From contig JAXGJB010000001.1 of the NCBI GenBank assembly GCA_040770465.1, positions 32,001 to 96,000 on the forward strand: a stretch of DNA of 64,000 nt, written 5' to 3'. The notes under the pieces were generated by a model. That model searched no databases, was not told the DNA's origin, and worked only from the letters and a program-made list of their open reading frames with translations. Position 1 is the first letter of the stretch. Each line of letters begins with the position of its first letter. A program made the translations under genes and the position numbers. Source of the stretch: Methanothrix sp. (GTDB taxonomy: Archaea > Halobacteriota > Methanosarcinia > Methanotrichales > Methanotrichaceae). Positions 1,779 through 39,826 of the stretch are shown here, piece after piece.

Positions 1779-3887
1779 ATGAGACTGATTTTATGCGTGA
1801 TGGCGCTGGCGATGCTGGTGATGCCCGCATGTGGGCAGGAGACAGCAGAGGAGTGGGTGGAAGAAGGCATTGCTCTTGGGAAGGGGGGCAATTACACCGA
1901 GGCTATCCAGGCGTTTGACGAAGCCATCAGGCTCGACCCGGCGAATGCTGAGGCCTGGTTTGGCAAAGGCACCGCTCTTGGATCTCAAGGCAATTACACC
2001 GAGGCCATCCAGTGCTATGATGAAGCCATACGCCTAGATCCTGAATATGCCGAAGCCTGGTATAACAAAGGCCTGTCTCTCTATTATCAGGGCAATCACA
2101 CCGAGGCGATCCAGGCCTTTGATGAAGCTATCAGGCTCAATCCTAAGGATGCCGAGGCGTGGAATGGCAAAGGCCTTGCTCTCGATGGTCTGGGCAACTA
2201 CACCAAGGCGATTCAGACATACGATGAAGCTATCAGGCTCGATCCTGAATATGCCGAGGCCTGGAATAACAAAGGCGTGGCTCTCTATAATCAAGACAAG
2301 TACGAAGAAGCGATCCGGGCCTATGACGAAGCCATCAGGCTCGATCCGGAATGTGCCGAGGCCTGGAATAACAAAGGCAATGCTCTCAGTAAGCAGGGTA
2401 ACCACACTGAGGTCATCCAGTGCTATGATGAAGCCATACGCCTAGATCCTGAATATGCCGAAGCCTGGTATAACAAAGGCCTGTCTCTCTATTATCAGGG
2501 CAATCACACCGAGGCGATCCAGGCCTTTGATGAAGCTATCAGGCTCAATCCTAAGGATGCCGAGGCGTGGAATGGCAAAGGCCTTGCTCTCGATGATCTA
2601 GGCAAGTACGACGAGGCTATCCAGGCTTACGACGAAGCCATCAGGCTCGATCCTGAGTTTGCCATGGCCTGGAATAACAAAGGCGTGGCTCTCTATAATC
2701 AAGACAAGTACGAAGAAGCGATCCGGGCCTATGACGAAGCAATTCGTCTCGATCCTGAGTTTGCATGGCCCTGGAATAATAAAGGCACAGCTCTAGGAAT
2801 GATGGGTAAGTACGACGAGGCGATCCAGGCCTTTGATGAAGCTATCAGGCTCAATCCTAAGGATGCCGAGGCGTGGAATGGCAAAGGCCTTGCTCTCGAT
2901 GATCTAGGCAAGTATGACGAGGCTATCCAGGCTTACGACGAAGCCATCAGGCTCGATCCTGAGTTTGCCATGGCCTGGAATAACAAAGGCGTGGCTCTCT
3001 ACAACCAGGGCAATTACACCGAGGCCATCCAGTGCTATGACGAGGCCATCCGTCTCGATCCTGAATATGCCCTAGCCTGGAATAACAAAGGCCTTGCTCT
3101 TGGATCTCAAGGCAATTACAGCGATGCTATCCAGGCGTTTGACGAAGCCATCCGTCTCGATCCCGAGGATGCCATGGCCTGGTATGGCAAAGGCGAGGCT
3201 CTCGATGACCTAGGCAATTACACCGAGGCCATCCAGTGCTATGATGAAGCCATCCGTCTCGATCCTGAGTTTGCATGGTCCTGGAATAACAAAGGCTGGG
3301 CTCTCTACAACCAGGGCAATTACACCGAGGCCATCCAGTGCTATGACGAGGCCATCCGTCTCGATCCCGAGGATGCCATGCCCTGGTACGGCAAAGGCAT
3401 TGCTCTCGATGACCTAGGCAATTACACCGAGGCCATCCAGTGCTATGATGAAGCCATCCGTCTCGATCCTGAGTTTGCATGGTACTGGAATAACAAAGGC
3501 TGGGCTCTCTACAACCAGGGCAATTACACCGAGGCCATCCAGTGCTATGACGAGGCCATCCGTCTCGATCCCGAGGATGCCATGGCCTGGAATAACAAAG
3601 GCTTGGCTCTCTACAACCAGGGCAACTACACCGAGGCGATCCACTGCTATGACGAAGCCATCCGTCTCGATCCTGAGTTTGCATGGCCCTGGAATAACAA
3701 AGGCCTTGCTCTTGGATCTCAAGGCAATTACAGCGATGCTATCCAGGCGTTTGACGAAGCCATCCGTCTCGATCCCGAAGATGCCATGGCCTGGTATAGC
3801 AAAGGCCTTGCTCTCGAATATCTTGGCAAGACATCCGAGGCAAACGAAGCTTACACCAAGGCTGAAGAACTTGGATTCGCGGTATAA
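1779..3887 (+). CDS. Secreted tetratricopeptide-repeat protein (~20 x 34-aa repeats)
   Basis: N-terminal signal peptide; repeated WxNKGxAL...EAIxxYDEAIRLDP; GGTGAGGAG RBS. Confidence 0.93.
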   Translation: MRLILCVMALAMLVMPACGQETAEEWVEEGIALGKGGNYTEAIQAFDEAIRLDPANAEAWFGKGTALGSQGNYTEAIQCYDEAIRLDPEYAEAWYNKGLSLYYQGNHTEAIQAFDEAIRLNPKDAEAWNGKGLALDGLGNYTKAIQTYDEAIRLDPEYAEAWNNKGVALYNQDKYEEAIRAYDEAIRLDPECAEAWNNKGNALSKQGNHTEVIQCYDEAIRLDPEYAEAWYNKGLSLYYQGNHTEAIQAFDEAIRLNPKDAEAWNGKGLALDDLGKYDEAIQAYDEAIRLDPEFAMAWNNKGVALYNQDKYEEAIRAYDEAIRLDPEFAWPWNNKGTALGMMGKYDEAIQAFDEAIRLNPKDAEAWNGKGLALDDLGKYDEAIQAYDEAIRLDPEFAMAWNNKGVALYNQGNYTEAIQCYDEAIRLDPEYALAWNNKGLALGSQGNYSDAIQAFDEAIRLDPEDAMAWYGKGEALDDLGNYTEAIQCYDEAIRLDPEFAWSWNNKGWALYNQGNYTEAIQCYDEAIRLDPEDAMPWYGKGIALDDLGNYTEAIQCYDEAIRLDPEFAWYWNNKGWALYNQGNYTEAIQCYDEAIRLDPEDAMAWNNKGLALYNQGNYTEAIHCYDEAIRLDPEFAWPWNNKGLALGSQGNYSDAIQAFDEAIRLDPEDAMAWYSKGLALEYLGKTSEANEAYTKAEELGFAV

Positions 3888-4092: not shown

Positions 4093-5313
4093 TCAGGCGT
4101 ACTGCCCGAAGGCCACCTCTGAGACCTCTTTCGTCGTCTCGGAGTGAGATCCGGCGATCTTGACCCGAGCCTGCTCGAAGTCCCGGTGGAAGACGACGTC
4201 CCTCTCTTCGCGGATCGCGAACATCCCAGCCTCCGTCGCCAGGGCCTTCAGGTCTGCGCCGCTGGCGCCCTCGGCGGCGTCGGCGATCTGCTTCAGGTTC
4301 ACGTCGGGATGGAGGTTCATGCATCCCGTATGAATCGACAGAATCGAATACCTGCTCTCCCTGTTCGGAAGCGGGACGTATATCAGCCGGTCGAACCGCC
4401 CTGGCCGCAGGAGGGCGGGATCGAGCATGTCGAGCCTGTTGGTGGCGGCGATCAGCTTCACCTCGCCCCGGGGGTCGAAGCCGTCCATCTCCGCCAGAAG
4501 CTGCATCAGAGTCCTCTGAACCTCGCGGTCGCCGCTTGTCGCCCCGTCCATCCTCCGAGACCCGATGGCGTCCAGCTCGTCGACGAATATGATCGCTGGC
4601 GCCTTGTTCTGGGCGAGCTCGAATAGCTCCCTCACCATCCTCGCCCCCTCGCCGATGTACTTCTGGACGAGCTCGCTTCCCACCACCCTTAGGAACGTCG
4701 CCTCGGTGCTGCAGGCGACGGCCTTCGCGAGGAGGGTCTTTCCCGTCCCTGGAGGCCCGTAGAGGAGGACCCCCTTCGGCGGCTCGATGCCGACCTTGAC
4801 GAAGAGGTCGGGCCTCTTCATCGGCAGCTCCACGATCTCCCTGATCTCCGAGATCTGGTCGTCAAGCCCCCCGATCATGCCGAATTCGACGTCGGGAGCG
4901 TCCTCGATCTCCATCCCGAAGACGGCGGGGTCGTGGGAAGATGGGAGGACGAACATCACCGAGAAGGACTGCTGGTTGAGGGCGACCCTGGTTCCGGGCC
5001 GCAGATCGCCCTCGATGAACTGGGATACGTTGACGACGAACCTCGGCCCTGTGCTGCTCTTGACCACCACCCGATTGTCGTCGAGGACGTCCTGGATGGT
5101 GCCCACTATCAGGGGACCGGTCCTGAGCCGCTCAAGCTCGCTCCGAAGCTTTCTCACCTCGCGTTCGAACTTGAGCTTCTGGTTCTCCATGACCCGCCTT
5201 TCACCCTCGGCCCGATCCTTCTGCTCTCGAAGGGCGAGGTTTCTCTCTTCGAGCTGTCGCATCCTGTCCATCAGGTAGCGCGAAAAATCAGCGCCGACTC
5301 GCGATTCGTCCAT
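4093..5313 (-). CDS. pan: Proteasome-activating nucleotidase (AAA+)
   Basis: N-terminal coiled coil, OB region, [24 protein letters not shown]-terminal QYA (HbYX-like). Confidence 0.97.
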
Positions 5314-8229: not shown

Positions 8230-9765
8230 ATGTTATTCGAGGTCAATCCCTTCGACATAGAGATCGGGCAGTACAAGGTGATGCTGAACCTGGCCGACGC
8301 AAGAGAGCTGGGCATGAACGCCGGGGATCGGGTGCGGGTGAAGGCGAAAGGGGCCTCGTTCACCGCGATCCTGGACGTCACCACCCAGATGGTGGAGCCC
8401 GGAAAGGTCGGGATCTTCACCGAGGCCCACCAGAAGGTGGGGGAGGCGAAGGAGGTGGACGTCGCCCCGGCGGCAAAACCCCTATCTATCAGCTACATCA
8501 AGAGGATCATGGACGAGGAGAAGCTCACCGAGGACCAGATCAGGACCATCGTCCAGGACATCGTCGACAACAATCTGAGCGACGTCGAGATCTCCGCCTA
8601 CCTCACCACCCTCTACATAAGAAACTTCGACTCTCAGGAGACGGAGTGGCTGACGAGGGCTATGATCGACACCGGCGAGCGGATCCACTTCGACACCCAC
8701 CCCGTGGTGGACAAGCATTCCATCGGAGGAGTTCCCGGAAACAAGGTATCCCTTCTGGTGGTGCCGATCGTGGCGGCGGCGGGGCTTCTCATCCCCAAGA
8801 CCAGCTCAAGGGCCATCACAGGCGCCGGGGGGACCTCCGACCTGATGGAGATTCTCGCCCCCGTAGAGTTCTCCGCCAGCGAGATAAAGGAGATCGCGGA
8901 GAGCGTGGGCGGGATCCTCGCCTGGGGCGGCGCGACGAACATCGCGCCAGCCGACGACAAGCTGATCAGGGCGGAGTACGCCCTCACCATCGACCCCTAC
9001 AGCCAGATGCTGGCATCGATCATGGCCAAGAAGGGGGCGGTCGGCGCAGACTCGGTGGTGATGGACATGCCCGTGGGCCCCGGAACGAAGCTCGCGACGG
9101 TCGACGACGGCAGGTCCATGGCCAAAGACCTCATCGACCTCGGCGACCGGCTCGGGATCAGGGTCGAGTGCGCCATGACCTTCGGCGGCTCGCCGGTGGG
9201 AAGGACGGTGGGGCCTGCCCTGGAGGTGAAGGAGGCCCTCACAATGCTTGAGAGCGGCCAGGGTCCCAACAGCCTCAGGGAGAAGAGCCTCTCTCTCGCC
9301 GGGGTCCTGCTGGAGATCGGATGCACCGCCGGGATGGGTTGCGTCGCCGCCCGGGGGGAGGGGAAGGCGATGGCCGAACGGATCCTCACCAGCGGCAAGG
9401 CCCACCAGAAGATGATGGAGATCATCGAGGCTCAGGGAGGCGACCCCACCGTCAAGAGCGAAGATATCGAGATCGGAGAGTATGTCCAGGATATCCTCGC
9501 CCCGACGACCGGCTACGTCATCTCCTTCGACAACAAGAGGATCGTCGAGATCGCGAGGAGCGCCGGGGCTCCCGCCGACAAGAAGGCCGGGGTCCGGATC
9601 CACAAGAAGATGGGTGAGGTCGTCAAGAAGGGCGAACCGCTCTTCACCATATACTCGAGCAAAGACTGGGAGGTCCAGAGGGCCGCCAACGACGCCCTGC
9701 GGGACATGCCCATCGTCGTCGAGGGGATGCTCCTGGAGAGGTATCCGAGGTACTCCCAGATCTAG
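8230..9765 (+). CDS. deoA: AMP phosphorylase (thymidine phosphorylase family, archaeal AMP pathway)
   Basis: DKHSIGGVPGNK, KTSSRAITGAGGT, ASIMAKK; extra N-terminal domain typical of AMPpase. Confidence 0.95.
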   Translation: MLFEVNPFDIEIGQYKVMLNLADARELGMNAGDRVRVKAKGASFTAILDVTTQMVEPGKVGIFTEAHQKVGEAKEVDVAPAAKPLSISYIKRIMDEEKLTEDQIRTIVQDIVDNNLSDVEISAYLTTLYIRNFDSQETEWLTRAMIDTGERIHFDTHPVVDKHSIGGVPGNKVSLLVVPIVAAAGLLIPKTSSRAITGAGGTSDLMEILAPVEFSASEIKEIAESVGGILAWGGATNIAPADDKLIRAEYALTIDPYSQMLASIMAKKGAVGADSVVMDMPVGPGTKLATVDDGRSMAKDLIDLGDRLGIRVECAMTFGGSPVGRTVGPALEVKEALTMLESGQGPNSLREKSLSLAGVLLEIGCTAGMGCVAARGEGKAMAERILTSGKAHQKMMEIIEAQGGDPTVKSEDIEIGEYVQDILAPTTGYVISFDNKRIVEIARSAGAPADKKAGVRIHKKMGEVVKKGEPLFTIYSSKDWEVQRAANDALRDMPIVVEGMLLERYPRYSQI

Positions 9766-9809
9766 ATCCGAGGTACTCCCAGATCTGGACCCATGATGCT
9801 CCCAGATCC
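9743..9809. repeat. Tandem duplication with 23-bp period spanning the AMP phosphorylase stop codon
   Basis: ATCCGAGGTACTCCCAGATCT at 9743-9763 and 9766-9786; degenerate third copy at 9789-9809. Confidence 0.85.
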
Positions 9810-9859
9810 GGAGTGTCGGTCGGAACGTTTTATAAGGTCGGTCTGGAGACGTAGGGGCC

Positions 9860-10708
9860 ATGTTGGTTGCCGTCATCTATCACCAGGATTTCGGGTCGAA
9901 GGGGCACAGCGTCCTCAAGCACCGGATCAAGCCCTCCTTTGAGGCGCTGGAGAGGTCAGGCCTCCTCGAAGGCGAAGAGGTTCAGGTCTTCAAACCCGAA
10001 CCTGCGCCCCTCGCCCTCGTCGAGAGGGCCCATACCCCAGAGCACATGGAGAGCATGAGGACCGAGTCTTACAACAAGATGTACTACGACGTCGCCCTCC
10101 TCTCGGCTGGAAGCGTCCTAAAAGCCTCCGAGATGGTGGCGAAGGGCGAGGCCGAGAACGCCTTCGCCTACACCGGCACCGCGGGCCACCACGCAAGCCC
10201 CGGAAGCTGCTGGGGGTTCTGCTACTTCAACGACGTCGCAATATCGATCTTGAGGCTGAGAGAGATGGGCCTAGCGAGGTTTCTGATCGTCGACGTCGAT
10301 CCCCACTTCGGCGACGGGACGAGAAACTTCTTCGGAGGCGACCCCGACGTCTACCACATAAACTTCAACCACCAGCAGAGCTCCAACTTCGACGGGAAGC
10401 TGAACAACTACGACATCGGTATCGGCTTCGACGCCGAAGACGAACAGTTCCTGAAAGAGCTTGAGAGCGCCATGGAGATGGCAAAAGACTTCGACTTTCA
10501 GATCTGTTTTGTGGTATTCGGCCACGACTCTCACGCCGACGACTACGGCGGCTTTGAGCTCACCTCGGCCGTCTATCCCAGGATGGCGAGGATCATAAAG
10601 GAGGCCGCGGGCGACAGGGGTATCGTCTTCGTCCTCAGCGGAGGGTCGGTCCCCGAGGTGGCGTCGAAGGCCATCCCCGAGGTGATAGCGGTCCTGGCGG
10701 GGAGGTGA
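9860..10708 (+). CDS. Histone deacetylase/AcuC family protein
   Basis: GHHA, GFCYFND, DVDPHFGDG, GHDSHADD. Confidence 0.9.
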   Translation: MLVAVIYHQDFGSKGHSVLKHRIKPSFEALERSGLLEGEEVQVFKPEPAPLALVERAHTPEHMESMRTESYNKMYYDVALLSAGSVLKASEMVAKGEAENAFAYTGTAGHHASPGSCWGFCYFNDVAISILRLREMGLARFLIVDVDPHFGDGTRNFFGGDPDVYHINFNHQQSSNFDGKLNNYDIGIGFDAEDEQFLKELESAMEMAKDFDFQICFVVFGHDSHADDYGGFELTSAVYPRMARIIKEAAGDRGIVFVLSGGSVPEVASKAIPEVIAVLAGR

Positions 10709-13071: not shown

Positions 13072-14871
13072 TTAAAGCGGCACCGTCCCGGTGTGGCAGA
13101 GGTTCTGCCTGATCATGGGCCACTCGAGATCTCCGAAGGCGTCGGAGATCTCCCAGATGTAGATCCGGGCGTCGTCGGATCCTGCCACCATCTCCAGGGT
13201 GCCGTCACCGTCGAGGTCTCCGAAGGCCGGCGTGGTATCGACGTTCCCGAGGGTCGCCTTGGGGAAATCCGGAACCTCGGTCCCGTCCAGCTTCCAGGCG
13301 TGAACCCTGTTGTCCCTGGATGCTCCCATTATCTCCTGCTGACCGTCGCCGTCGATGTCGCCGAGGGCGACGTGCTTGACGTATCCACCCGTCTGGATGG
13401 GAAAGCCCGGATAATCGGAGCCGTCGCTCTTCCAGAGGTAGAGCCTGCCATCGGTGGCGCCTGCCGCCATCTCGACGGTTCCGTCACCGTCCACGTCTCC
13501 TGCGGCCATGAGGCTGTCCTGGAGCGAGCCGCTCGTCTTTCGCGGAAACTGCCTTTTATCTTCCCCTTCCTGGGTCAGGGCGTAGAGGCCGTCCGCCGCT
13601 CCGATGATGATCTCGAGGCTGCCGTCACCATCGAGGTCTGCCAGAATCGGAGAGGAGTATCCTACGGCGCTCCCCGTAAAGTCGGTGAGGCTGGGGCTGT
13701 TAAGGTCGACGGGAAATTCCAGAAGGGGATATCCATCGCATTTCACGGCGTAAACCTGGCCGGTGTACGAGCCCATAAGGCTCACCAACATGCTTATGAT
13801 GTCCTCCCCTGTCTTCTTGGAGCCTACGACGATCTCGAGGCTGCCGTCGCCGTCGAGATCGGCGATGGCCGGTGACGACCAGACCGAGTTTGCGGTGATC
13901 ACCGGAAAGCCACAGACGGGCGATCCGTCGGCGTTGAAGGCGTATATCCCCCTGTCGTTCGACCCCACCACGACCTCGAGGCTGCCGTCGCCGTCGAGGT
14001 CGCCTGCTGCCGGCGAAGACGCGATGTCGTTGGAGGTCAGCTTGGGGAAGCCGGCGAGAGGCTCACCCTGACCGTTCCAGGCGTAGAGCTTGCCGTCGTC
14101 GGAGCCGACGACGATATCCAGGGAACCGTCACCGTCCAGGTCTGCAACGGCTGGCGAGGAGCGGATGTGGTCTTCCGCCGCCGTCGGGAACCCGGCCACC
14201 CTGGTGGCGTCCTCGTTGAAGACGTAGAGCATCCCCTCGTTCGTCCCCACGATGATCTCAAGCTCGCCGTCACCGTCGACGTCGGCAAGAGCCGGCGAGG
14301 ACCAGATCGGCTTTGCGGTCTGAATCCAGTCTCCGGTGACGGTTTCATCTATGGGAAGAACGACAAAAGAGTCAATGAAGCTGCTGAAGTAGAGGAGGTC
14401 GGCTCTCCTGTACTCCGACTGGTCTGCACTGCAGGATATGTGGTAGATCAGCTCGTCGCCCATCAAGAAGACGTCTTTTCTGATTTTGGAGCTATCATCG
14501 TCTTCAAGGAGGTACTCCCTCTCCAGGGACGAGGCGCCGTTTATCTCCCTGGATACGGTGCTCATCACCTCGAAATGATCGCAGGATTCTTCGTAGTCCG
14601 ATTCGGTCCTGGAGGCAAACCTCTCCAGCGATAGTCCTCTCTGCTCCGAGGCCCCGACTATGATCGTCATTATGCCGACGGCTGAGAACGTGGCCACCGG
14701 ATCTTCGACTCCAGTGGTGCTCGTTGGAACAACGTCGATATCCAGCTCTCTTGGGTACTCCACGGAGAAGCCGTACTCAAGGCTGTTGAACTCCTCTGTC
14801 TGGGCGCTTGCTGGTACGAGAACAAACGCCGAAAAGGCCAACACCAATGCTATATCTTTAAAATTCTTCAT
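13072..14871 (-). CDS. Secreted FG-GAP/VCBS-repeat beta-propeller protein with a PsbP-like N-terminal domain
   Basis: Signal peptide; YGFSVEYP; ~8 repeats of SSPAxADLDGDGxLEIVVG...GFP. Confidence 0.88.
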   Translation of the reverse strand: MKNFKDIALVLAFSAFVLVPASAQTEEFNSLEYGFSVEYPRELDIDVVPTSTTGVEDPVATFSAVGIMTIIVGASEQRGLSLERFASRTESDYEESCDHFEVMSTVSREINGASSLEREYLLEDDDSSKIRKDVFLMGDELIYHISCSADQSEYRRADLLYFSSFIDSFVVLPIDETVTGDWIQTAKPIWSSPALADVDGDGELEIIVGTNEGMLYVFNEDATRVAGFPTAAEDHIRSSPAVADLDGDGSLDIVVGSDDGKLYAWNGQGEPLAGFPKLTSNDIASSPAAGDLDGDGSLEVVVGSNDRGIYAFNADGSPVCGFPVITANSVWSSPAIADLDGDGSLEIVVGSKKTGEDIISMLVSLMGSYTGQVYAVKCDGYPLLEFPVDLNSPSLTDFTGSAVGYSSPILADLDGDGSLEIIIGAADGLYALTQEGEDKRQFPRKTSGSLQDSLMAAGDVDGDGTVEMAAGATDGRLYLWKSDGSDYPGFPIQTGGYVKHVALGDIDGDGQQEIMGASRDNRVHAWKLDGTEVPDFPKATLGNVDTTPAFGDLDGDGTLEMVAGSDDARIYIWEISDAFGDLEWPMIRQNLCHTGTVPL

Positions 14872-16367
14872 AGACTCACTTCCAGGTTGCTGAGGTTCAC
14901 AAGACCGTAGCCGTATATGTCGTCGGGACCCAGTGGTCCCAGGTCTGTGGCGCTATCCATCAGGACCTTTTCGACGTCCAGATCCGGATCGTCCTTGAAC
15001 GCCTCCATGATCAGGGCGGCGCATCCCGCCACGTACGGTGCGGATGCCGAGGTTCCTGCAAAGCCGTTGGAAATGTAAGAGTATGTCGTGACGTTGTCTG
15101 GGGCCACCAGATCCGGTTTTTGTCGACCGTCCACAGTAGGACCCCTGGAGCTGTAGGGCTCGATCTCCATCGTCGAGATGTTGATCGCCCCCACCGTTAT
15201 CACGTTTCGGCAGCAGCCCATGACCCCTATGCTGGAGTTTTGAATCTGGTGCTCATCCAGGTCCTGAGTGGTGAAGAGGTGGAGACGAATCGGAGATTTC
15301 TGATCGCCGGCATCGTCGTATCTCCTTATCTTTATCTGATAGGTCCCATCCTCCGGAGCCACGAGGTATATCGTCTCCAGTGGCCTCTGGTCCCGGTAGC
15401 CTTTCTGGAGGTTGTTTGAGGTCGAGTGACCACGGACCGGATGGTCTAGGCGCAGATCGTAGTCCAGGGCAGCAGCATCCCAGTCATCGTCCCAGCTCAG
15501 CCAGATCCTGGCGATGTTCCCTTCCTCCAGGGTCAGATTTATGCTCTCATCTTCAGGCGAGAAGTTGTTAAAACCGTTCCCATCGGGGTCATTGAACTCT
15601 CCGGACCAGTGGCATCTCGCCTGATTTCCCGCGGAGTTGATCCATAAGGTCCCGTTGGCTGTCATCTTCGCGATCTCTTCGCATATGTCGTCCTCCCCGT
15701 CGAACCTGCCGAAGGGAAAGTCCGATGAGCAGGATACGATGTCGATATGCTCGTCCAGCTCCAGCAGCCTCTCTATCGCGTCGGTGACACCTTCTTCGTC
15801 ATCTCCCGCGTCCACCAGGTAGAGTTTGACCTCGGGGGCTATCTCGGAGATCAGCTCCGCACATGCGATCCCATGGACCTCATATTTGCGGTAGCTGTCA
15901 TTGTAGAAGGGGACTATATCGCGGGTGAGCTTCTCTGCGGTCTCGTTGTCGTAGTAGAACTGGCTGTCCAGGATGGCGATCGTCACCCCTTTCCCCGTTA
16001 TGTTCCTATCGTGAAGGGCGGATATCCCCGTGAGATCCATCATCAGGCTGACAGAATGATAGTCGAGCATCGCCTCCGCCTCTTCTTCGTCGCCAGATCC
16101 GTCCTCGTCCAACAATTCGCCTTCGTCAACAGGTCCAGCTTCGTCAACAGATTCTGACCCGTCGGGATCCAGGACTTCGAAGCTCGGGAGGAGGTAAGGC
16201 AAACTGCCGGAGACGATCTCCATACATCCTGACTGGTCGCTGATATCGGTGGTGATGGGGTCATCGAGCCTGATGGGCGAATCGTCATCGCAGATCACAG
16301 ATGTCGATAAGGCTGCGAGGATCGCCAGGGCCGAAATGCAGATGGCTATAAGCGATGTATCTCTCAT
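14868..16367 (-). CDS. Secreted S8 (subtilase) serine peptidase with an inserted PPC-like domain
   Basis: Triad AILDS / VHG / GTSASAPYVAG, oxyanion NSAGN, YSSRGP, KPDLVAP. Signal peptide starts at ATG 16367; 4-nt overlap with the FG-GAP gene. Confidence 0.9.
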   Translation of the reverse strand: MRDTSLIAICISALAILAALSTSVICDDDSPIRLDDPITTDISDQSGCMEIVSGSLPYLLPSFEVLDPDGSESVDEAGPVDEGELLDEDGSGDEEEAEAMLDYHSVSLMMDLTGISALHDRNITGKGVTIAILDSQFYYDNETAEKLTRDIVPFYNDSYRKYEVHGIACAELISEIAPEVKLYLVDAGDDEEGVTDAIERLLELDEHIDIVSCSSDFPFGRFDGEDDICEEIAKMTANGTLWINSAGNQARCHWSGEFNDPDGNGFNNFSPEDESINLTLEEGNIARIWLSWDDDWDAAALDYDLRLDHPVRGHSTSNNLQKGYRDQRPLETIYLVAPEDGTYQIKIRRYDDAGDQKSPIRLHLFTTQDLDEHQIQNSSIGVMGCCRNVITVGAINISTMEIEPYSSRGPTVDGRQKPDLVAPDNVTTYSYISNGFAGTSASAPYVAGCAALIMEAFKDDPDLDVEKVLMDSATDLGPLGPDDIYGYGLVNLSNLEVSL

Positions 16368-16627
16368 GGGAACCGTCACGTCCGTCTTAATTTCCAGCTG
16401 ATGATTGGCATGTATTCTATATAAGCATATCTCTGGGAAGCCGTGTATCAAACTTCATTCTTTTTAAAGGCAAACAAAGCATGCTCGGGTTTATTTGATT
16501 TGAGACCAAAAGAAGGTGGGTTTATTGTCAAGCCGGCGAGATTCTATATTTTTGAGGTTTCGCCCTGGGCAGATCTCGAAATATCTGACGCGAAAAGGGG
16601 ATCTACTCGTCTCTCCATCCACAGTCC

Positions 16628-34837: not shown

Positions 34838-35026
34838 GCGCGTGGAGGCGCGAGGTGGTGCGGGCTCGTGGCAGGCCTGGCCCTCTCACCACCGTTTTTG
34901 GGCGATCGCCGGGCGGCGCTAGACCTGATTGGCAGAAGTCTCGCACAGGGATCTGAGTCGTCAAAACTCGCGCCCCTTCCCGATTGACGAAACCTTTATG
35001 ATAAATGGGAACATTCGATAGCCTCA

Positions 35027-37636
35027 GTGAAAGACTTCTTTATCAGCTACACCAGCGCCGACGAAAAATGGGCAACGTGGATAGCCTGGCAGCTAGAGGT
35101 GGCGGGATACACCACCATCCTCCAGGCCTGGGATTTTCGGCCAGCGCACAACTTCATGATGGAGATGGATGAAGCCTCCAAAAAAACAGAAAGAACGATA
35201 GCCATTCTATCTCCTGATTATTTCGAATCCGACTTCTGTAAATTGGAGGCGTTTACCGCTCTCGTCGAAGATCCAGCGAGCAGGGCGGGGAAGCTGCTTC
35301 CGATACGAGTAAGAGAATTTGAGAAGAAGGGTCTTATGAGGTCAATCGTTTACATCGACTTGATGGGGCTGGAGGAAGAAGCAGCAAATAAGGCCCTCCT
35401 TGACGGTGTCAAGTTCGATCGGGTGCCGTCGCCGCCGCCGGGCTTCCCAGGCTTGCGGTCAGTGACGGAAAAGCCGCGTTTTCCTGGAGCTCTGCCGGAC
35501 GTCTGGAACGTCCCTTTTAACCGAAACCCTAACTTCACAGGCCGGAGATCCCTTTTGACCGATCTTCACGCAGCTCTGAACTCCGGTCAATACGCCGCTC
35601 TGACTCAGGCGATAGTCGGCCTCGGCGGCGTGGGCAAGACCCAGTTGGCGCTGGAGTACGTCTATAGCTACATCGACGACTACGAGATCGTCTGGTGGCT
35701 GCGATCTGAAGAGCCATCGACCCTGGTCGCCGATTACGTCGGCCTCGCCGCGGCTCTGAATCTGCCGGAGAGCCGCCTCGCAGATCAGAATATCGTCGTC
35801 GAGGCCGTAAGGCGCAAGCTCGGCCAGCTCGAAGGCTGGCTTCTGATATTCGATAACGCCGCGAAACCTGAACGTGTCGATCCTTACCTGCCCCAAGGAG
35901 GCCGGGGTCATGTGATTATCACCTCCCGGAATCCAAACTGGGGCGGTACCGCAAAGTCCCTCCCCGTCAACGTCTTTAGCCGGGACGAGTCGATTGAGTT
36001 CCTTTGTAAGAGAACCAGGCAGCAAGACGGCGCCGACGCTCTTGCTGACGCTCTTGGCGACCTGCCCCTCGCCCTTGAGCAAGCTGGGGCGTATATCGAT
36101 AGTACTATGATTACGCTTGCAGACTACCTCAAAAGGTTCCAACAAAAGAAAAATCAAATATTAAAGCGCTACAATCCTATCGCTTATTCCGGCACTGTAG
36201 GTACAACTTGGGAAATCTCATTCCAGCAGCTCCAAAATGAGTCTACTGTAGGCGCTAATATGCTCAACCTCATAGCGTTCCTAGCCTCTGACAACATACC
36301 TAAATCACTTCTCATAGAGGGAGCACTGGATCTTTTTGACCCCCTAGAAGCCGCAGCTTTAGCTATCATTGCCTTAGTTAATCCGGATGAAGGCATAAAA
36401 TCGCTAATCGATCCAATTAAGATTGACGATGCCATAGCGGCACTGAAAAAGTACTCGCTTGTGACTGTGACATACGATTACCTATCTGTCCACAAGCTTG
36501 TTCAGACTTCTACTCGCAATAGGATGGTCGAGGACGAAAAGACGAGGTGGGCCAAGGCTGCAATTCTGCTCATGAATAACACCTTTCCCAGAGAAAGCTA
36601 TGACATCCGGAAATGGCCTAAATGCTCGCTCTTATTACCCCACGCCTTAGTATCAGTGGACCATGCAATAACGCATAAAGTTGCTCCTGAAGCTGTAGCC
36701 AGCCTTTTAAATGAGGTTGGAATTTACCTACAAGAATTAGCTGATTATGCCAGGGCAAAGTTGGCCTTCGAGCGGACCCTTCGTATTCGCAAGCAGGTAC
36801 ATGGCTCTGACCATCCGGATGTGGCCATTGGGGCTAATAACCTTGGTGTATTATTACTAAAGATTAACGACCTACAAGGCGCAGTTAAATATTTCGAAGA
36901 GGCCCTGAGGATCTTCGAGAAAGAATACGGCCCGGATCATCCTAAATTGGGCGGTGTAATCAATAACATATCCGCGGCTCAGTTCGAAATGGGAAACTTC
37001 AAAGGTGCCAAGAAGAATGTTGTTAAGGCTATGAAGATCCATATGAAGTCGTTTGGCACAAATTCTGCTGAAGTGGCTAGCGACCTCAATAATCTCGGTT
37101 CAATCATGTGGAAAATGAAAAACTTTAGAAGTGCCAAAAAGATTCTTGAGCGTGCTCTCAAAATCGATGAGAACGTGTTCGGTCCCGACCATCCATCCGT
37201 AGCTAGGGATGCCAACAACCTCGGCCTAGTCCTACATGCTCTCTTAGAATATGAGAACGCAAAAAATTATCATGAGATTGCGATGCGTATTGAAAAGAAG
37301 CTGTACGGTGCCGACCATCCATACGTGGCCAGGGATGCCAACAACCTTGGCTCGGTTCTCGAAGATATGGGCGATCTGGAGAAAGCGAAGAATTATTACG
37401 AGCAAGCTATGCTTATAAATACGAAAGTATACGGTCCAGACAGCCGCGAAGTTGCGATGAACCTCAACAACCTCGGCAAGGTCCTGAATAGCATTGGCGA
37501 CCCTGCCGGCACCAAAAATTCTTTCGAGAGTGCATTAAAGATATTCCGAGAGATTCTGGGAGACGCTCATCCTGACACAGTGAAGGCACGAAATAATCTT
37601 GAGACTATAGATCGCTGCCTTAGAAGTAGATCTTGA
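35027..37636 (+). CDS. TIR - NB-ARC (STAND NTPase) - TPR protein
   Basis: DFFISY...LSPDYFESDFCKLE (TIR); RNPNFTGR, GLGGVGKT, LLIFDNA, IITSR, LPLAL (NB-ARC); ~7 42-aa GxDHPxVAxxxNNLG repeats. Confidence 0.92.
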   Translation: MKDFFISYTSADEKWATWIAWQLEVAGYTTILQAWDFRPAHNFMMEMDEASKKTERTIAILSPDYFESDFCKLEAFTALVEDPASRAGKLLPIRVREFEKKGLMRSIVYIDLMGLEEEAANKALLDGVKFDRVPSPPPGFPGLRSVTEKPRFPGALPDVWNVPFNRNPNFTGRRSLLTDLHAALNSGQYAALTQAIVGLGGVGKTQLALEYVYSYIDDYEIVWWLRSEEPSTLVADYVGLAAALNLPESRLADQNIVVEAVRRKLGQLEGWLLIFDNAAKPERVDPYLPQGGRGHVIITSRNPNWGGTAKSLPVNVFSRDESIEFLCKRTRQQDGADALADALGDLPLALEQAGAYIDSTMITLADYLKRFQQKKNQILKRYNPIAYSGTVGTTWEISFQQLQNESTVGANMLNLIAFLASDNIPKSLLIEGALDLFDPLEAAALAIIALVNPDEGIKSLIDPIKIDDAIAALKKYSLVTVTYDYLSVHKLVQTSTRNRMVEDEKTRWAKAAILLMNNTFPRESYDIRKWPKCSLLLPHALVSVDHAITHKVAPEAVASLLNEVGIYLQELADYARAKLAFERTLRIRKQVHGSDHPDVAIGANNLGVLLLKINDLQGAVKYFEEALRIFEKEYGPDHPKLGGVINNISAAQFEMGNFKGAKKNVVKAMKIHMKSFGTNSAEVASDLNNLGSIMWKMKNFRSAKKILERALKIDENVFGPDHPSVARDANNLGLVLHALLEYENAKNYHEIAMRIEKKLYGADHPYVARDANNLGSVLEDMGDLEKAKNYYEQAMLINTKVYGPDSREVAMNLNNLGKVLNSIGDPAGTKNSFESALKIFREILGDAHPDTVKARNNLETIDRCLRSRS

Positions 37637-37756
37637 ACGACAGCTATTTCGATCGCGTCTCCCCTTCCCCCATCCCACACTAAGCCGAATGCTATTACCT
37701 TCTTTCCTGAGATCAATAACCTTTAAACAATCCCCCGCCTTACCCTCCCCTCATCC

Positions 37757-39826
37757 ATGGTCGAAGATCCCGTTGCGAAGTGGGAGGAGTTCATCAGGTC
37801 CAGGTACTGGGACGAGCTGTTGGAGCTCGCCGACTCCTACCCCCTCCGCCGAAGCCTAGTCATCAAGTTCCCCGACGTCGACCGGTACGACCCGGAGTTC
37901 GCCGACGAGCTTTTGGAGCGGCCCGAGCCCCTCCTGGAGGCGGCCGAGACCGCCCTCCTGGAGATCGATCTGCCCATCGACGTCGTCTTAGAGAAGGCTC
38001 ACTTCCGGATAGTGGGGCTTCCCCGAAGGTACAAGACGAGCGAGCTTCGGTCCGATCACATCGGCCGGCTCATCGCCCTGGAGGGGCTGGTGCGGACGGT
38101 GACCGAGGTGCGGCCGAAAGTGATCTCGGCGGCCTTCGAGTGCCAGAGGTGCGGCCACCTCTTCTACAAGGAGCAGACCACCTCCAAGTTCCAGGAGCCC
38201 TACGACTGCCCCAACGAGGCCTGCGACCGGCGAGGCCCCTTCAAGCTGCTCCTGGACAGGTCAAGGTTCGTCGACGCCCAGAACGTCCGGGTCCAGGAGT
38301 CCCCCGAGGAGCTCCGGGGCGGCGAGCAGCCCCAGACCCTCGACGTCCAGCTCGAAGACGACCTGACGGGGATGATCTACCCCGGCGACCGGGTCGTGAT
38401 CAACGGGGCTCTTCGGTCATATCAGAGGACGACTCAGACCGGGAAGTCGACATACTTCGATCTGTTCCTCGAAGGAAACTCCATCGAGATGATGGAGCAA
38501 GAGTTCGAGGAGATCGACATCAAGGCAGAAGACGAGCGGCTGATAAGAGAGCTTGCCGGCGACCCCATGATCTACGACAAGGTCAAAAGGTCCATCGCCC
38601 CCTCCATCTACGGCTACGACGAGGTGAAGGAGGCCCTGGGGTTACAGCTATTCTCCGGCGTCTCCAAGGGCCTCCCCGACGGGACCAGGATCCGAGGCGA
38701 CATCCACATCCTCCTCGTCGGCGACCCCGGCATCGCAAAAAGCCAGCTCCTCAGGTACATCTCCAAGCTCTCGCCCCGGGGGATCTACACCTCGGGGAAG
38801 AGCTCCACCTCGGCGGGTCTGACCGCGACGGCCGTCAAGGACGAGCTCGGCGACGGCCGCTGGACCATCGAGGCGGGAGCGCTGGTCCTGGCGGACAAGG
38901 GGATCGCCTGCATCGACGAGATGGACAAGATGAGAAGCGAAGACCGGTCCGCCCTCCACGAGGCGATGGAGCAGCAGACGATCAGCGTCGCGAAAGCCGG
39001 GGTGATGGCGACCCTCAAGTCGCGATGCGCCCTCCTGGCTGCCGCGAACCCCAAGTTCGGCCGCTTCGACAAGTACGAGGGGATAGCCCAGCAGATCAAC
39101 CTCTCCCCCGCCCTCATGTCCCGGTTCGATCTGATCTTCGTCCTCACCGACGAGCCTAGCGACGCCCGCGACTCCCAGATCGCCCACCACATCGGCCAGA
39201 CCACCTACGCCGGCGAGATCTCGTCGCGGGGCGACAGGTCGAGAGAGGAGCTGGAGGCGGTGATGGATGTGATCCGCCCCGCCATCGAGCCCGAGGTCCT
39301 AAGAAAGTACATCGCCTACGCCCGAAAGAACGTCTTTCCCGTCCTCTCCGACGAGGCGAGAGAGAGGCTCGAAGGCTACTACGTCAGCCTCCGAAAGCAG
39401 GGCCAGGACTCAAACAAGCCCGTCCCGGTGACGGCAAGACAGCTTGAAGCCCTCTTCAGGCTAAGCGAATCGAGCGCGAGGCTCCGTCTCAGCGACGAGA
39501 TCACCGGCGGCGACGCCGAACGGGTGATCAGGATCGTCGAGTCCTGCCTCCGGCAGGTGGGGGTCGACCCCGAGACCGGCCTCCTCGACGCCGACGTCCT
39601 GGCGGTGGGGATCAGCAAGAGCACCCGGGACAAGACGAGGCTCGTCCTCGACCTCATAAAAGAGCTGACAAAAGAGCACCAGGGCCCCGCCCCCCTGGAG
39701 GCGGTCCTCGACGGGGCCGAGGCGAAGCTCGCTATGGAGAGACATAAAGCCGAAGAGATCATAAAGAGGCTCAGGACAAACGGCGAGATCTTCGAGCCGA
39801 GACCCGGCTATCTGAAGCTTCCATGA
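37757..39826 (+). CDS. mcm: Replicative helicase MCM
   Basis: Zn finger, GDPGIAKSQ, IDEMDKM, MEQQ, SRFD, TARQLE; no intein. Confidence 0.97.
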   Translation: MVEDPVAKWEEFIRSRYWDELLELADSYPLRRSLVIKFPDVDRYDPEFADELLERPEPLLEAAETALLEIDLPIDVVLEKAHFRIVGLPRRYKTSELRSDHIGRLIALEGLVRTVTEVRPKVISAAFECQRCGHLFYKEQTTSKFQEPYDCPNEACDRRGPFKLLLDRSRFVDAQNVRVQESPEELRGGEQPQTLDVQLEDDLTGMIYPGDRVVINGALRSYQRTTQTGKSTYFDLFLEGNSIEMMEQEFEEIDIKAEDERLIRELAGDPMIYDKVKRSIAPSIYGYDEVKEALGLQLFSGVSKGLPDGTRIRGDIHILLVGDPGIAKSQLLRYISKLSPRGIYTSGKSSTSAGLTATAVKDELGDGRWTIEAGALVLADKGIACIDEMDKMRSEDRSALHEAMEQQTISVAKAGVMATLKSRCALLAAANPKFGRFDKYEGIAQQINLSPALMSRFDLIFVLTDEPSDARDSQIAHHIGQTTYAGEISSRGDRSREELEAVMDVIRPAIEPEVLRKYIAYARKNVFPVLSDEARERLEGYYVSLRKQGQDSNKPVPVTARQLEALFRLSESSARLRLSDEITGGDAERVIRIVESCLRQVGVDPETGLLDADVLAVGISKSTRDKTRLVLDLIKELTKEHQGPAPLEAVLDGAEAKLAMERHKAEEIIKRLRTNGEIFEPRPGYLKLP

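Follow-up and report, generated by a model that had tools for sequence, protein, structure and literature searches.

A TIR-NB-ARC-TPR gene in a variable island between nfeD and mcm of Methanothrix sp., a candidate NLR-like immune sensor

Introduction

What does a gene that joins a TIR domain, an NB-ARC-type NTPase, and TPR repeats do in a methanogen, where it lies alone between nfeD and mcm? We addressed this question for one such gene in a 64-kb stretch of Methanothrix sp. DNA (hereafter "the window", meaning the whole stretch analyzed). An earlier, sequence-only reading had assigned the DNA to a methanogen, which is reasonable because McrA is encoded in the source genome, and had proposed the gene as a single-gene immune receptor. 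We conclude that it is probably (at a probability of roughly 0.6) a one-protein, NLR-like (STAND) abortive-infection sensor that would act by NAD+ cleavage.

Gene structure and domain organization

The ORF begins with GTG, remains open over 2,607 nt, ends with a stop codon at 37634-37636, and encodes an 869-aa protein whose N-terminus, MKDFFISY, agrees with the start of aligned homologues. Its parts are as follows (positions in the window).

35027..37636, + strand: TIR-NB-ARC-DUF7779-TPR gene (ORF list, Pfam and NCBIfam matches, homologue start)
35027..35416, + strand: TIR domain, aa 1-130 (Pfam TIR_2), with the codon of the candidate catalytic E74 at 35246-35248
35417..35521, + strand: Pro-rich linker, aa 131-165 (low model confidence; PRFPGALP motif)
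35522..36046, + strand: P-loop NTPase domain, aa 166-340 (Walker A/B invariance, NOD profile matches)
35618-35641, + strand: Walker A, GLGGVGKT, residues 198-205
35840-35854, + strand: Walker B, LLIFD, residues 272-276
aa 299-301, inside the P-loop NTPase domain, + strand: sensor-I-like TSR (translation)
36047..36661, + strand: ARC/winged-helix region, aa 341-545 (Pfam DUF7779; conserved LPL and His)
aa 345-354, in the ARC/winged-helix region: GxP-like DLPLALEQAG
aa 488-490, in the ARC/winged-helix region: MHD-like VHK
36662..37633, + strand: TPR sensor, aa 546-869 (Pfam TPR_12/TPR_10, repeat register, pLDDT)

In Pfam, TIR_2 (PF13676) matched residues 4-120 (E 1.3e-28, 100.4 bits against a cut-off of 28), DUF7779 matched residues 402-504, and TPR_12 (E 2.9e-73) and TPR_10 (E 9.1e-55) each matched six stretches. 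NB-ARC (PF00931) matched residues 195-335 below its gathering cut-off (E 1.7e-4, 21.4 bits against 23.5), so that this call is sub-threshold for the window protein alone and rests on the family, in which 42 of 49 aligned members matched NB-ARC at E ≤0.001; TIR-NLR copies at the same locus in the genus reached 28.6, 36.8, and 30.7 bits. When residues 547-869 were cut every 42 aa, seven full repeats in register and an eighth of 29 aa were obtained, in agreement with DNA repeats of a 126-nt period. The repeats are of the kinesin-light-chain (KLC) type, and KLC TPR structures matched at 24-30% identity. An AlphaFold model of the 869-aa protein had a mean pLDDT of 83.2 and a pTM of 0.65, with values of 90-98 in the TPR region and <50 at linker residues 131-144; the linker motif PRFPGALP is conserved among relatives. 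The anatomy given by the sequence-only reading was therefore recovered: a TIR domain that keeps its Glu (SDFCKLE, at 68-74), an intact STAND NTPase (GLGGVGKT and LLIFD in the translation), and about seven 42-aa TPR repeats.

When a profile of the nucleotide-binding NOD region was compared with solved structures, it matched AfsR (6.2e-10), NRC1 (2.3e-9), ROQ1 (7.5e-8), and Apaf-1 (3.8e-5), as well as NRC2 and ZAR1. All AP-ATPase matches had E ≤1.4e-4, the remaining matches being small GTPases at E ≥0.007, and only AP-ATPases stood above noise. No NACHT family matched in Pfam at E ≤0.01 and no NACHT structure was retrieved by the NOD profile, and membership in bNACHT was rejected on these grounds. 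Judged by these profile matches, the NOD belongs to the AP-ATPase/NB-ARC clade, and its nearest solved relatives are not NACHT, MalT, or SWACOS proteins.

A variable island and its mobile relatives

The gene has a 2.9-kb island to itself.

34838..37756, no strand assigned: variable single-gene island, from the nfeD stop to the mcm start (flank divergence points, genus comparison)

Pfam bore out the two housekeeping neighbors named by the sequence-only reading: the upstream gene, which ends at 34837, has three NfeD domains, and the downstream gene, which starts at 37757, encodes MCM (E 6.4e-97). In contigs from other samples, the flanks are matched at ≥95% identity up to 34829/34833 and 37756, where divergence sets in. 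A comparison of presence and absence at the locus, which the same reading had proposed, showed that both flanking genes occur in all 16 genus genomes (nfeD at 79-91% and mcm at 91-98% identity), although the two are on separate contigs in 10 of the other 15, and that the cargo differs almost everywhere. A TIR-NLR gene lies beside mcm in G000 and in G002, where one TAA stop truncates it, and G015 has two such genes there; in G010, a TIR-NLR gene is found downstream of nfeD. The remnant at the locus in G014 lacks both the TIR and the P-loop, and G004 has a TIR fragment with a stop. Other genomes carry beside mcm a type I R-M system (G013), a helicase with an MZB domain (G007), a PI-PLC gene (G012), only a Usp gene (G008), or a Usp-like ORF (G006). 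The same-locus TIR-NLR copies are 41-79% identical per domain and split in a tree into at least two clades, each with a support of 0.987. Universal, slowly evolving conservation, which the sequence-only reading had said would speak against an immune receptor, is thus clearly not the pattern at this locus. With conserved flanks and variable cargo that includes known defense genes, the interval belongs to the operational class of defense hotspots. A scan of 42 further ORFs of the window gave no convincing defense system, so that there is no classic defense-island context beyond the hotspot itself.

The composition of the gene sets it apart from its flanks, with a GC3 of 0.55 against 0.88-0.89; by domain, GC3 ranged over 0.48-0.69 (TIR 0.61, ARC 0.49, TPR 0.48). 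Divergence is mosaic: the closest relatives per domain reached 84% identity for the TIR and 81% for the NBD, and at most 54% for the ARC and 47% for the TPR region, while a search with the sensor half gave at most 48% identity among the best 120 of 1,902 matches. Horizontal acquisition or exchange, with retention in the variable hotspot beside mcm, would best explain these features.

Relatives are also encoded at nine loci on IMG/VR viral contigs, three of them being full-length TIR-NLRs, and at the three loci examined, genes for terminase, integrase, and tail sheath are among the neighbors. The foreign composition of the gene, the decay of copies in sister species, and the occurrence of relatives on viral contigs all fit with a defense gene. 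In line with effector swapping, in-genome paralogues have other N-termini on the same chassis, and they form the sister clade (support 0.95); one NB-ARC-TPR paralogue of 561 aa (approximately 556-563 aa, 35-38% identity) occurs in G000 and at least 12 other genus genomes, indicating that not all family members are accessory. This conserved paralogue is one of several points in favor of a non-immune STAND switch, whose TPRs would sense an endogenous peptide, protein, or metabolite and whose TIR, by NAD+ turnover or scaffolding, would serve signaling in stress, in development, or between cells (kin or aggregate). In addition, AfsR, the closest solved NOD, is a transcription regulator, the PDB title of 6mfv, the best whole-chain match, names no immune role, no known defense genes flank the TIR-NLR gene, and Dyrka et al. 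tie the abundance of prokaryotic NLRs to multicellular or aggregating lifestyles. However, TIRs with an NADase-type Glu typically serve as conflict effectors, and the lack of conservation at the locus, the foreign composition, the decay in sister species, and the recurrence on viral contigs make such a switch unlikely.

Integrity of the motifs and traces of expression

E74, G198, G201, G203, K204, T205, and D276 were invariant in all 49 sequences of the family alignment, and E74 was also invariant in 10 of 10 sequences of a second comparison. In the 49-sequence alignment, L346, P347, and L348 were invariant and H489 nearly so; we take DLPLALEQAG and VHK, which contain them, to be the GxP ("GLPL") motif and the MHD-like His. 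When the TIR profile was compared with structures, the best matches were the NADase TIRs PdTIR (3h16, 2.6e-11) and AbTIR (7uwg and 8g83, 1.3e-9 and 2.7e-9), and E74 aligned to the Glu of the W-x-x-x-E-L motif in both ("WPQKEL" in PdTIR and "WTNYEL" in AbTIR), an alignment that does not directly match the chain numbering to AbTIR E208. The catalytic Glu is needed for the activity of AbTIR (E208) and archaeal TcpO (E279) (PMC10022894). A Glu was also aligned at the E74 position in a receptor TIR (TLR15/TLR2 chimera). Receptor TIRs of this sort are not known to be NADases; a conserved TIR Glu is necessary, not sufficient, for such activity.

At 33 of the 233 near-invariant columns, the window protein has a residue untypical of the family, more than any other of the 49 sequences (3 to 26 in the others). 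Among these departures are G40A in the FRPG motif (BB-loop region) and W75A, directly after the catalytic Glu, at positions where 45 of the 48 other aligned sequences and all eight TIR-NLR relatives in the genus keep G and W; TIR activity in the window protein could therefore be weakened.

Upstream of the gene, the TATA-like box that the sequence-only reading had placed at about 34992-35005 was located.

34987..35006, + strand: BRE/TATA-like element, cGAAAcc TTTATGATAAAT (sequence; same-locus copies)

The box TTTATGATAAAT lies at 34995-35006 with cGAAA before it, and an element of the form cGAAA-N2-TTTATGAT-N-AAT is found at an equal distance from the GTG start in four of four same-locus genus copies; similar GAAA...TTTA elements precede four other TIR-NLR genes. 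The element presumably acts as the promoter, and because it is centered approximately 27 nt before the GTG start, transcription from the putative start would give an mRNA that is leaderless or nearly so. DNA contigs from two further studies (X3 and X4) contained pieces of the gene without errors, as did, with two error-free pieces, 35145-35509 and 37452-37618, RNA-library contigs of the same study as the likely source; the latter are a weak hint of transcription, being assembled contigs from a library that may contain DNA. Gene pieces in other samples, which come from three studies dated 2016 to 2024, differ at 0-1 positions, indicating that no ongoing diversification is visible within the species.

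These data bear on the possibility that the gene is a decaying or inactive relic, in other words an intact-looking copy that arrived horizontally, was weakened, and is drifting under relaxed constraint. The record number of departures, with G40A and W75A beside the active site, would fit such a relic, as would the many substitutions to K, M, I, N, or S, which agree with the low GC, and the truncated copy (G002), remnant (G014), and stop-bearing TIR fragment (G004) of sister species. Nevertheless, the 2,607-nt frame is open with all catalytic and NTPase motifs intact, the BRE/TATA element is conserved, the TPR model keeps its pLDDT of 90-98, and pieces with at most one difference recur across the three studies and in the RNA library; we therefore regard a relic as quite unlikely.

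Proposed mechanism

The preferred reading, a one-protein abortive-infection sensor, implies the following steps, in which the ligand, oligomerization, NADase activity, and antiviral role are proposed from homology. At rest, the NTPase would be ADP-bound and held closed by the TPR superhelix and the ARC/winged-helix modules. A foreign protein, the likeliest source of which would be a methanogen virus or another mobile element, would bind the TPR sensor; binding would release the MHD-like latch, and nucleotide exchange would lead to oligomerization, by which the N-terminal TIRs would be joined into composite active sites around E74. The assembled TIR domains would cleave NAD+, and its depletion would stop the growth of the infected cell or kill it (abortive infection).

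Alternatively, in a Thoeris-like arrangement, the TIR might make a cADPR-type messenger for an unlinked effector, so that the solo gene would be only half of a system. A SIR2_2 gene lies directly downstream of the TIR-NLR both in G015, at the nfeD-mcm locus, and on the viral contig L046, the two SIR2_2 proteins being 51% identical to each other, and the source genome has two unlinked SIR2_2-domain ORFs on other contigs. However, a search at E ≤1e-10 did not find SIR2_2 of the G015 type in the source genome (94.85% complete) or in 39 of 40 other genomes, the G015 and L046 proteins have no other Pfam domain and hence no recognized signal-binding domain, and the island holds nothing else, which makes this arrangement improbable. 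Because the island contains no partner effector and the SIR2_2 partner was not found in the genome, NAD+ depletion is likelier than pure second-messenger signaling. Membership in Thoeris was rejected on the single-gene island, the location of the SIR2_2 ORFs on other contigs, and the missing G015-type SIR2_2.

A more far-reaching proposal is that nfeD-mcm is a genus-wide methanogen immune hotspot in which TIR-NLRs are retargeted when whole ARC-TPR cassettes are swapped onto a conserved TIR-NBD head, and that the window gene encodes a working receptor that depletes NAD+ and whose unique sensor is directed specifically at a protein of a methanogen virus. We offer this proposal tentatively and consider it more doubtful than not.

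Family assignment

At least 4,341 homologues at E ≤1e-20 were found among 8,000 candidates scored, in bacteria, Methanosarcinaceae, and Methanothrix, and homologues at 40-60% identity, which number in the thousands, share TIR_2, NB-ARC, DUF7779, and TPR_10/12. The protein scored 458.5 bits against a cut-off of 300 with the NCBIfam equivalog NF040586 (FxSxx-COOH system TPR protein), the name that NCBI gives to several homologues. Kaur, Burroughs, Iyer, and Aravind (2020; PMC7159879) described the TIR-AP-ATPase-TPR architecture as a conflict-system gene. The STAND superfamily, which takes in this architecture, was surveyed in PMC13581612; in that survey, only sensors of 400 aa or more were clustered, single-gene STANDs with TPR-like sensors are proven antiphage receptors, and non-defense clades are interspersed with defense clades. 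Furthermore, a TIR-NLR gene of P4 satellites (Rst_TIR-NLR) protects E. coli (PMC9122126). The claim of the sequence-only reading that this was the window's best candidate for an undescribed system therefore does not hold, given the number of homologues, the existing NF040586 model, and the printed description (PMC7159879 and PMC13581612): the gene is well formed, but it is an ordinary member of a large family with bland annotation.

A PADLOC check for Avs or another named defense system, likewise proposed by that reading, gave no match for the window protein. At E ≤0.01, only six families matched, with a generic TPR model and TIR matches at E 1e-4 to 2e-3 and no AVAST, Avs, or NLR model, and Avs/AVAST membership was rejected accordingly. 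Rst_TIR-NLR gave no match, although the presence of such a model in PADLOC-DB 2.0.0 is uncertain.

A role in an FxSxx-COOH peptide-processing (RiPP-like) system, suggested by the NF040586 score, the NCBI names, and the actinobacterial TIR-AP-ATPase-TPR gene found downstream of an FxSxx peptide system (PMC7159879), is highly improbable, since the best match to the radical-SAM/SPASM protein FxsB (TIGR04269) in the 94.85%-complete source genome reached 128.1 bits against a cut-off of 370, the island is single-gene, and no FxSxx-type neighbors were seen in the stretches examined at the four loci of this genome that pass the NF040586 cut-off. With FxsB missing from the source genome, the FxSxx label reflects homology only.

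Comparison with known systems

The proven prokaryotic STAND immune receptors in the literature consulted, namely Avs (PMC13581612), bNACHT, and Rst_TIR-NLR (PMC9122126), all come from bacteria, with E. coli as the test host. Our literature search, whose coverage left out many subscription-journal papers, turned up no study in which a TIR-NB-ARC-TPR protein, or any NLR-like gene in a methanogen, was tested by experiment. If the preferred reading is true, NLR-type, NAD+-based abortive infection would extend to archaea, which would use TIR plus NB-ARC, the module pair of plant TNLs. If the hotspot and sensor-swap proposal is also true, the gene would be the first archaeal pattern-recognition receptor of the AP-ATPase clade open to experiment, and AP-ATPase TIR-NLRs would be the closest prokaryotic counterparts of plant TNLs. 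The locus, where the flanks are conserved, the island borders are clear, and several natural alleles occur together with decayed copies and a two-gene SIR2_2 variant, could be used to study sensor exchange and the effects of viruses on methanogen populations in anaerobic digesters.

Among proteins that resemble it in part, AbTIR, PdTIR, TcpO, and Thoeris ThsB share the TIR fold and catalytic Glu with the window protein. These four are TIR-only or coiled-coil-TIR proteins, whereas the window TIR would be under STAND control and has no ThsA-like partner adjacent. The archaeal PH0952-type STAND-TPR protein (6mfv), in which an NTPase is likewise followed by a TPR sensor, was the best whole-chain fold match (E 4.7e-13; TM 0.47 and 0.60 over 743 columns, at only 15% identity); it was not retrieved by the sequence profiles, and its 641-aa chain appears, from title and length, to lack a TIR. 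AfsR (the Streptomyces SARP-NB-ARC-TPR protein, PDB 8k60/8jke), the closest NOD by sequence, shares the D-N-A Walker B, the GxP region, and C-terminal TPRs, but has an N-terminal DNA-binding SARP and regulates transcription, whereas the window protein has a TIR effector.

Plant TIR-NLRs (ROQ1 and RPP1) share the order of TIR and NB-ARC NOD and the catalytic Glu, ROQ1 being matched by the TIR profile (9.2e-5) as well as the NOD profile and RPP1 by fold. However, the window sensor consists of TPR_10/12 repeats, whereas the plant proteins have LRRs plus C-JID, and its Walker B is of the hhhhD-N type, whereas that of the plant proteins has DD. To our knowledge, archaea have no EDS1-type downstream pathway.

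With the NF040586/TIR-AP-ATPase-TPR family, the window gene shares the full architecture and the family score; it differs in being archaeal, in standing alone beside mcm without FxsB or peptide-processing neighbors, and in a sensor half at most 48% identical to the best 120 of its 1,902 matches. Avs1-24 of the Gao laboratory (PMC13581612) and Rst_TIR-NLR (PMC9122126) share the one-gene plan of effector, STAND NTPase, and TPR-like sensor, the carriage in hotspots and prophages, and the varying of the effector on a common chassis. Unlike these families, the window protein has a NOD of the AP-ATPase type and a short, regular array of KLC-type TPRs of approximately 324 aa as its sensor.

Anatomy and promoter of the window gene

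The gene named in the sequence-only reading was returned by the ORF list with identical coordinates, and the motifs named there were found in the protein. The features are as follows (domains from Pfam).

34995–35006: TATA-like box, TTTATGATAAAT, with cGAAA just before it
35027..37636, + strand: window gene, 869 aa, GTG start
residues 4–120: TIR_2 (E 1.3e-28)
residues 68–74: SDFCKLE motif
residues 195–335: NB-ARC, weak (21.4 bits, just missing the cut-off of 23.5)
residues 198–205: GLGGVGKT motif
residues 272–276: LLIFD motif
residues 402–504: DUF7779
residues ~557 to the C-terminal end: TPR_12 and TPR_10, strong

In an alignment of 49 sequences (the window protein, 46 metagenomic homologues, and 2 genus copies), E74, G198, G201, G203, K204, T205, and D276 were invariant columns. 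The estimate of about seven TPR repeats of 42 aa was also borne out: when residues 547–869 were cut at 42, seven repeats fell in perfect register, followed by an eighth of 29 residues. As had been read from the sequence, NfeD is encoded upstream and MCM downstream (Pfam); an SPFH gene precedes nfeD, and McrA is encoded in the same genome. The predicted TATA-like element lies at an equal distance from the GTG in all four same-locus genus copies, and its center is approximately 27 nt upstream of the start codon, so that the mRNA would be leaderless or nearly so. The public protein collection holds the gene only as entry P0001 (693 aa, 100% identical, without a TIR_2 annotation), whose source is a contig of 2,980 bases; P0001 was probably cut by the contig end, in which case that record would miss the TIR head.

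Protein class and predicted fold

When a profile restricted to the TIR and made from ten genus sequences was compared with the PDB, the best matches included the Paracoccus TIR PdTIR (3h16, 2.6e-11) and AbTIR (7uwg, 1.3e-9; 8g83, “NAD(+) hydrolase AbTIR”, 2.7e-9), with Cat1, TIR-APAZ, ROQ1, SARM1, and RUN1 ranked lower. In the profile alignments, E74, the invariant Glu of the profile, lay opposite the Glu in “WPQKEL” (PdTIR) and in “WTNYEL” (AbTIR). According to PMC10022894, the conserved catalytic Glu is required in AbTIR (E208) and in the archaeal TcpO TIR (E279). The corresponding profile for the NOD alone, made from nine genus sequences, matched AfsR (6.2e-10), NRC1 (2.3e-9), ROQ1 (7.5e-8), NRC2, Apaf-1 (3.8e-5), and ZAR1, below which it picked up only small GTPases at noise level. 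By these matches, the NTPase belongs to the AP-ATPase/NB-ARC clade, even though by itself the window protein falls under the Pfam threshold; NB-ARC matches at E ≤ 0.001 were obtained for 42 of the 49 aligned relatives.

The AlphaFold model, built from the 49-sequence alignment, was of good quality, with a mean pLDDT of 83.2 (90–98 in the TPR region) and a pTM of 0.65. Its top whole-chain Foldseek match was 6mfv, an archaeal STAND-TPR structure (E 4.7e-13), with kinesin-light-chain TPR domains next in the ranking (24–30% identity), and the plant TIR-NLR RPP1 was also among the matches. We infer from homology that the window protein may oligomerize.

Turnover at the nfeD–mcm locus

The window corresponds to G000:C1:32001–96000. 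Both nfeD (79–91% identity) and mcm (91–98% identity) are present in all 16 genus genomes. The presence/absence comparison proposed in the sequence-only reading showed that the cargo between the two genes, or beside mcm, differs among these genomes. The two genes are split between contigs in 10 of the 15 other genomes, for which the content is known on one side only.

Table. Content at the nfeD–mcm locus in other genus genomes (G, genome; C, contig; L, locus)
Genome; nfeD and mcm; content
G008; same contig; 860 bp with a Usp gene only
G006; same contig; 1.8 kb with a look-alike of the G008 Usp
G011; same contig; pentapeptide-repeat gene, low GC
G001; same contig; TPR protein, low GC
G003; same contig; TPR proteins, low GC
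G013; split; type I R-M HsdM and HsdS beside mcm (L027, C28, 2325–5500)
G007; split; gene of at least 1,030 aa with Helicase_C and MZB (L026, C6, 2409–5501)
G012; split; PI-PLC-X gene, GC 0.38 (L025, C14, 1–1478)
G009; split; methyltransferase
G002; split; TIR-NLR ended at 643 aa by TAA, with a TPR piece behind (L018, C2, 2499–4439)
G014; split; remnant of 508 aa that keeps DUF7779 and TPRs and lacks TIR and P-loop (L022, C24, 2507–4033)
G010; split; nfeD, P-type ATPase gene, then TIR-NLR
G015; split; TIR-NLR, SIR2_2, TIR-NLR, mcm in this order

This hotspot beside mcm is a local feature worth recording. Flank-matching contigs from other samples (≥95% identity) diverge from the window at 34829/34833 and 37756, so that the borders of the island, with the window gene as its sole cargo, coincide with the stop of nfeD and the start of mcm. 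A search for direct or inverted repeats bracketing the island turned up nothing beyond short chance matches and the 126-nt periodicity of the TPRs; there is thus no att-like site and no target-site duplication. Among the matches listed, which leave out 110 weaker ones, TIR-bearing matches occurred in the genome of the window gene (G000) and in G001, G002, G003, G010, and G015, together with a stop-bearing fragment in G004 (6 or 7 of 16 genomes); the 25 genomes from outside the genus gave none. The G004 fragment (G004:C89:4512–4874), a piece of TIR with a TAG stop, is a decayed relative, as are the G002 and G014 copies. The cargo tabulated for G013, G007, and G012 occupies the spot adjacent to mcm. 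In G013, a gene with a GC of 0.31 and without known function lies between HsdM and HsdS.

Composition and mosaic divergence

The GC content falls from 0.63–0.67 in the flanks to 0.46–0.59 within the window gene, and GC3 is 0.89 in nfeD and 0.88 in mcm, against 0.61 in the TIR, 0.69 in the NBD, 0.49 in the ARC, and 0.48 in the TPR domain. Across all collected sequences, the top identities to the window gene were 84% (TIR), 81% (NBD), 54% (ARC), and 47% (TPR), with the closest ARC found in an own-genome paralogue. The same-locus copies were 56–64% (TIR), 60–79% (NBD), 46–53% (ARC), and 41–47% (TPR) identical, and the mcm genes next to them 92–97%. The first database search was seeded from residues 1–500 only, and a second was made with residues 400–869; among the best 120 of 1,902 matches of the latter, identity was at most 48%, self excluded. 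The putative sensor half of the window gene is unique, in that no listed protein exceeds this value, and is a local feature worth recording. With full-length relatives reaching no more than 63% identity, synonymous sites are saturated.

A FastTree phylogeny of the NBD-ARC region (73 sequences, 0 dropped, rooted on a 561-aa paralogue) placed the window gene in one clade (support 0.987) together with the copies of G002 and G010 and six proteins of metagenomic origin. One G015 copy (G015b), the G014 remnant, and G010_C213 formed another (0.987). Three TIR-less own-genome paralogues were the sister of the clade of the window gene (0.95). The TIR of one protein, P0027, is 82% identical to that of the window gene, yet its NBD-ARC falls in the other clade. 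Taken together, the tree and the domain identities point to module exchange.

Relatives on viral contigs and a SIR2_2-partnered variant

An IMG/VR scan with the alignment as query found nine loci coding for relatives, three of which are full-length TIR-NLRs (40–41% identity). Gene neighbors were read in three of the nine: part of a gpA-type large terminase is encoded in L044, and a non-contractile tail-sheath protein in L046; L047 (2281–10403), on a predicted viral contig, has a large terminase gene as well as an integrase gene paired with a Trypco1 gene. In L047, the relative is a 997-aa ORF flanked by this pair and the terminase, and it has NB-ARC and TPR domains and a different N-terminus.

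In two unrelated contexts, the gene that immediately follows a TIR-NLR encodes a SIR2_2 protein of approximately 320 aa: at 3885–4847 in L046, beside the tail-sheath gene, and at 9516–10466 in G015 (L016, G015:C27), where the gene is located between two TIR-NLRs next to mcm; the two proteins are 51% identical. TIR-NLR and SIR2_2 may form a two-gene system, and this recurrent variant in relatives is a local feature worth recording. The G015 type was found in only one of the 41 genomes searched, G015 itself. It was not found in the own genome of the window gene, which makes that gene a true solo form.

Standing of the immune-receptor reading

The sequence-only reading had proposed a one-gene immune receptor, as the best candidate in the window for an undescribed system. 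The anatomy was confirmed. An immune receptor is a plausible reading of this gene and fits all contextual tests run; the label “undescribed” fails. Several observations count against a working defense gene. The window protein departs from 33 of 233 near-invariant columns, compared with 3–26 in the other 48 sequences. The TIR holds four of them (G40A, W75A, F79L, and C98F), and G40 and W75 are kept in all eight genus TIR-NLR relatives; many of the remaining changes introduce K, M, I, N, or S, the pattern expected of AT drift. Furthermore, PADLOC found no convincing defense system among the 42 other window ORFs, and the nearest solved NOD is that of a regulator. A Glu at the E74 position also occurs in receptor TIRs that are not known as NADases.

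Inactivity is itself opposed by the open frame, the intact motifs, and the conserved promoter element. Pieces of the gene with at most one difference were present in samples from three studies (2016–2024). Two error-free pieces occurred in RNA-library contigs, likely from the source study, but these are only a weak hint of transcription, because such libraries can contain DNA. None of the RNA or DNA contigs joined the gene to its flank by at least 31 letters. The uncovered gene parts in X12 and X20 are uninformative, because contigs drop rare material; contig depths are unsuited to ranking genes, and the X13–X20 runs cover small shares of the stretch, from which no habitat claim is drawn.

Paralogues and other accessory genes

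Four own-genome loci pass the cut-off of NF040586 (NCBIfam “FxSxx-COOH system TPR protein”), and four loci carry TIR_2. The paralogues have NB-ARC, DUF7779, and TPR_10/12 in common and differ at their N-termini. Those on contigs C41 and C43 begin with a region of approximately 215 aa of no known family, for which the C41 paralogue gave no usable ESM Atlas match. Those on C53 and C31 have N-terminal regions without a Pfam match that, judged by eye, look hydrophobic and signal- or membrane-like. The 561-aa paralogue on C55 lacks an extra N-terminal region, and look-alikes of approximately 560 aa occur in most genus genomes among the matches listed.

The C41 (L031, 2030–6626, 1,067 aa) and C43 (L033, 116–4206, 864 aa) paralogues are each in divergent pairing with the same two small ORFs, one of 132 aa (no Pfam match) and one of 106 or 141 aa, an arrangement suggestive of a three-gene module that was duplicated. 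Further low-GC TIR_2 genes of this genome are L035 (G000:C59, 1193–2854, 553 aa, GC 0.35) and L036 (G000:C35, 1516–2706, 396 aa, GC 0.40), whose C-terminal parts gave no Pfam match.

Elsewhere in the window, the 702-aa TPR protein at 1779–3884 (+), with GC3 lowered to 0.60, matched generic PADLOC TPR models (E 7e-28) and may be another accessory repeat protein. The 406-aa AAA+ ATPase at 4096–5313 (−) matched PADLOC IetA models (E 6e-41) and also TRIP13; no subtilase partner was seen next to it, the nearest subtilase-like match being at 14871–16451, and it is read as a probable housekeeping ATPase.

Comparison with known systems

The window protein scored 458.5 bits against NF040586 (cut-off 300), which covers the NTPase-TPR body, and several homologues bear this name at NCBI. 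As Kaur et al. 2020 (PMC7159879) describe, an FxSxx-type peptide-processing system of actinobacteria is followed downstream by a gene for an AP-ATPase that has a TIR at its N-terminus and TPRs at its C-terminus, and the family name derives from this gene order. No FxsB, the radical-SAM partner of that system, exceeded the cut-off in the own genome (best 128.1 bits against 370), and the island holds no other genes; the label therefore denotes homology, not system membership. Comparative genomic work, including that of Kaur et al. 2020, has recorded this architecture for years, and the claim of an undescribed system is not justified. A genome-contig scan with the window protein alone yielded only two loci, both weak and irrelevant, one in Actinoplanes (30% identity) and one in Roseateles (24%). 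For the window protein, PADLOC matches were limited to a TPR model of generic type and weak hits to TIR models, and included neither Avs nor any other named system.

The window gene is an archaeal, solo member of a known, abundant kind. A TIR-NLR gene out of a P4 satellite hotspot protected E. coli (Rousset et al., PMC9122126). PMC13581612 arranges 589 clades of prokaryotic STANDs, AP-ATPases included, in a phylogeny and terms 198 of them defense-associated; in the accessible part of its supplementary text, the terms AP-ATPase, TIR, NB-ARC, and TPR_12 do not occur. The same paper reports for 14 Avs families that the TPR-like sensor binds conserved phage proteins, and that Avs and related families combine a shared chassis with varying effector heads (PMC13581612), an arrangement that the own-genome paralogues of the window gene resemble.
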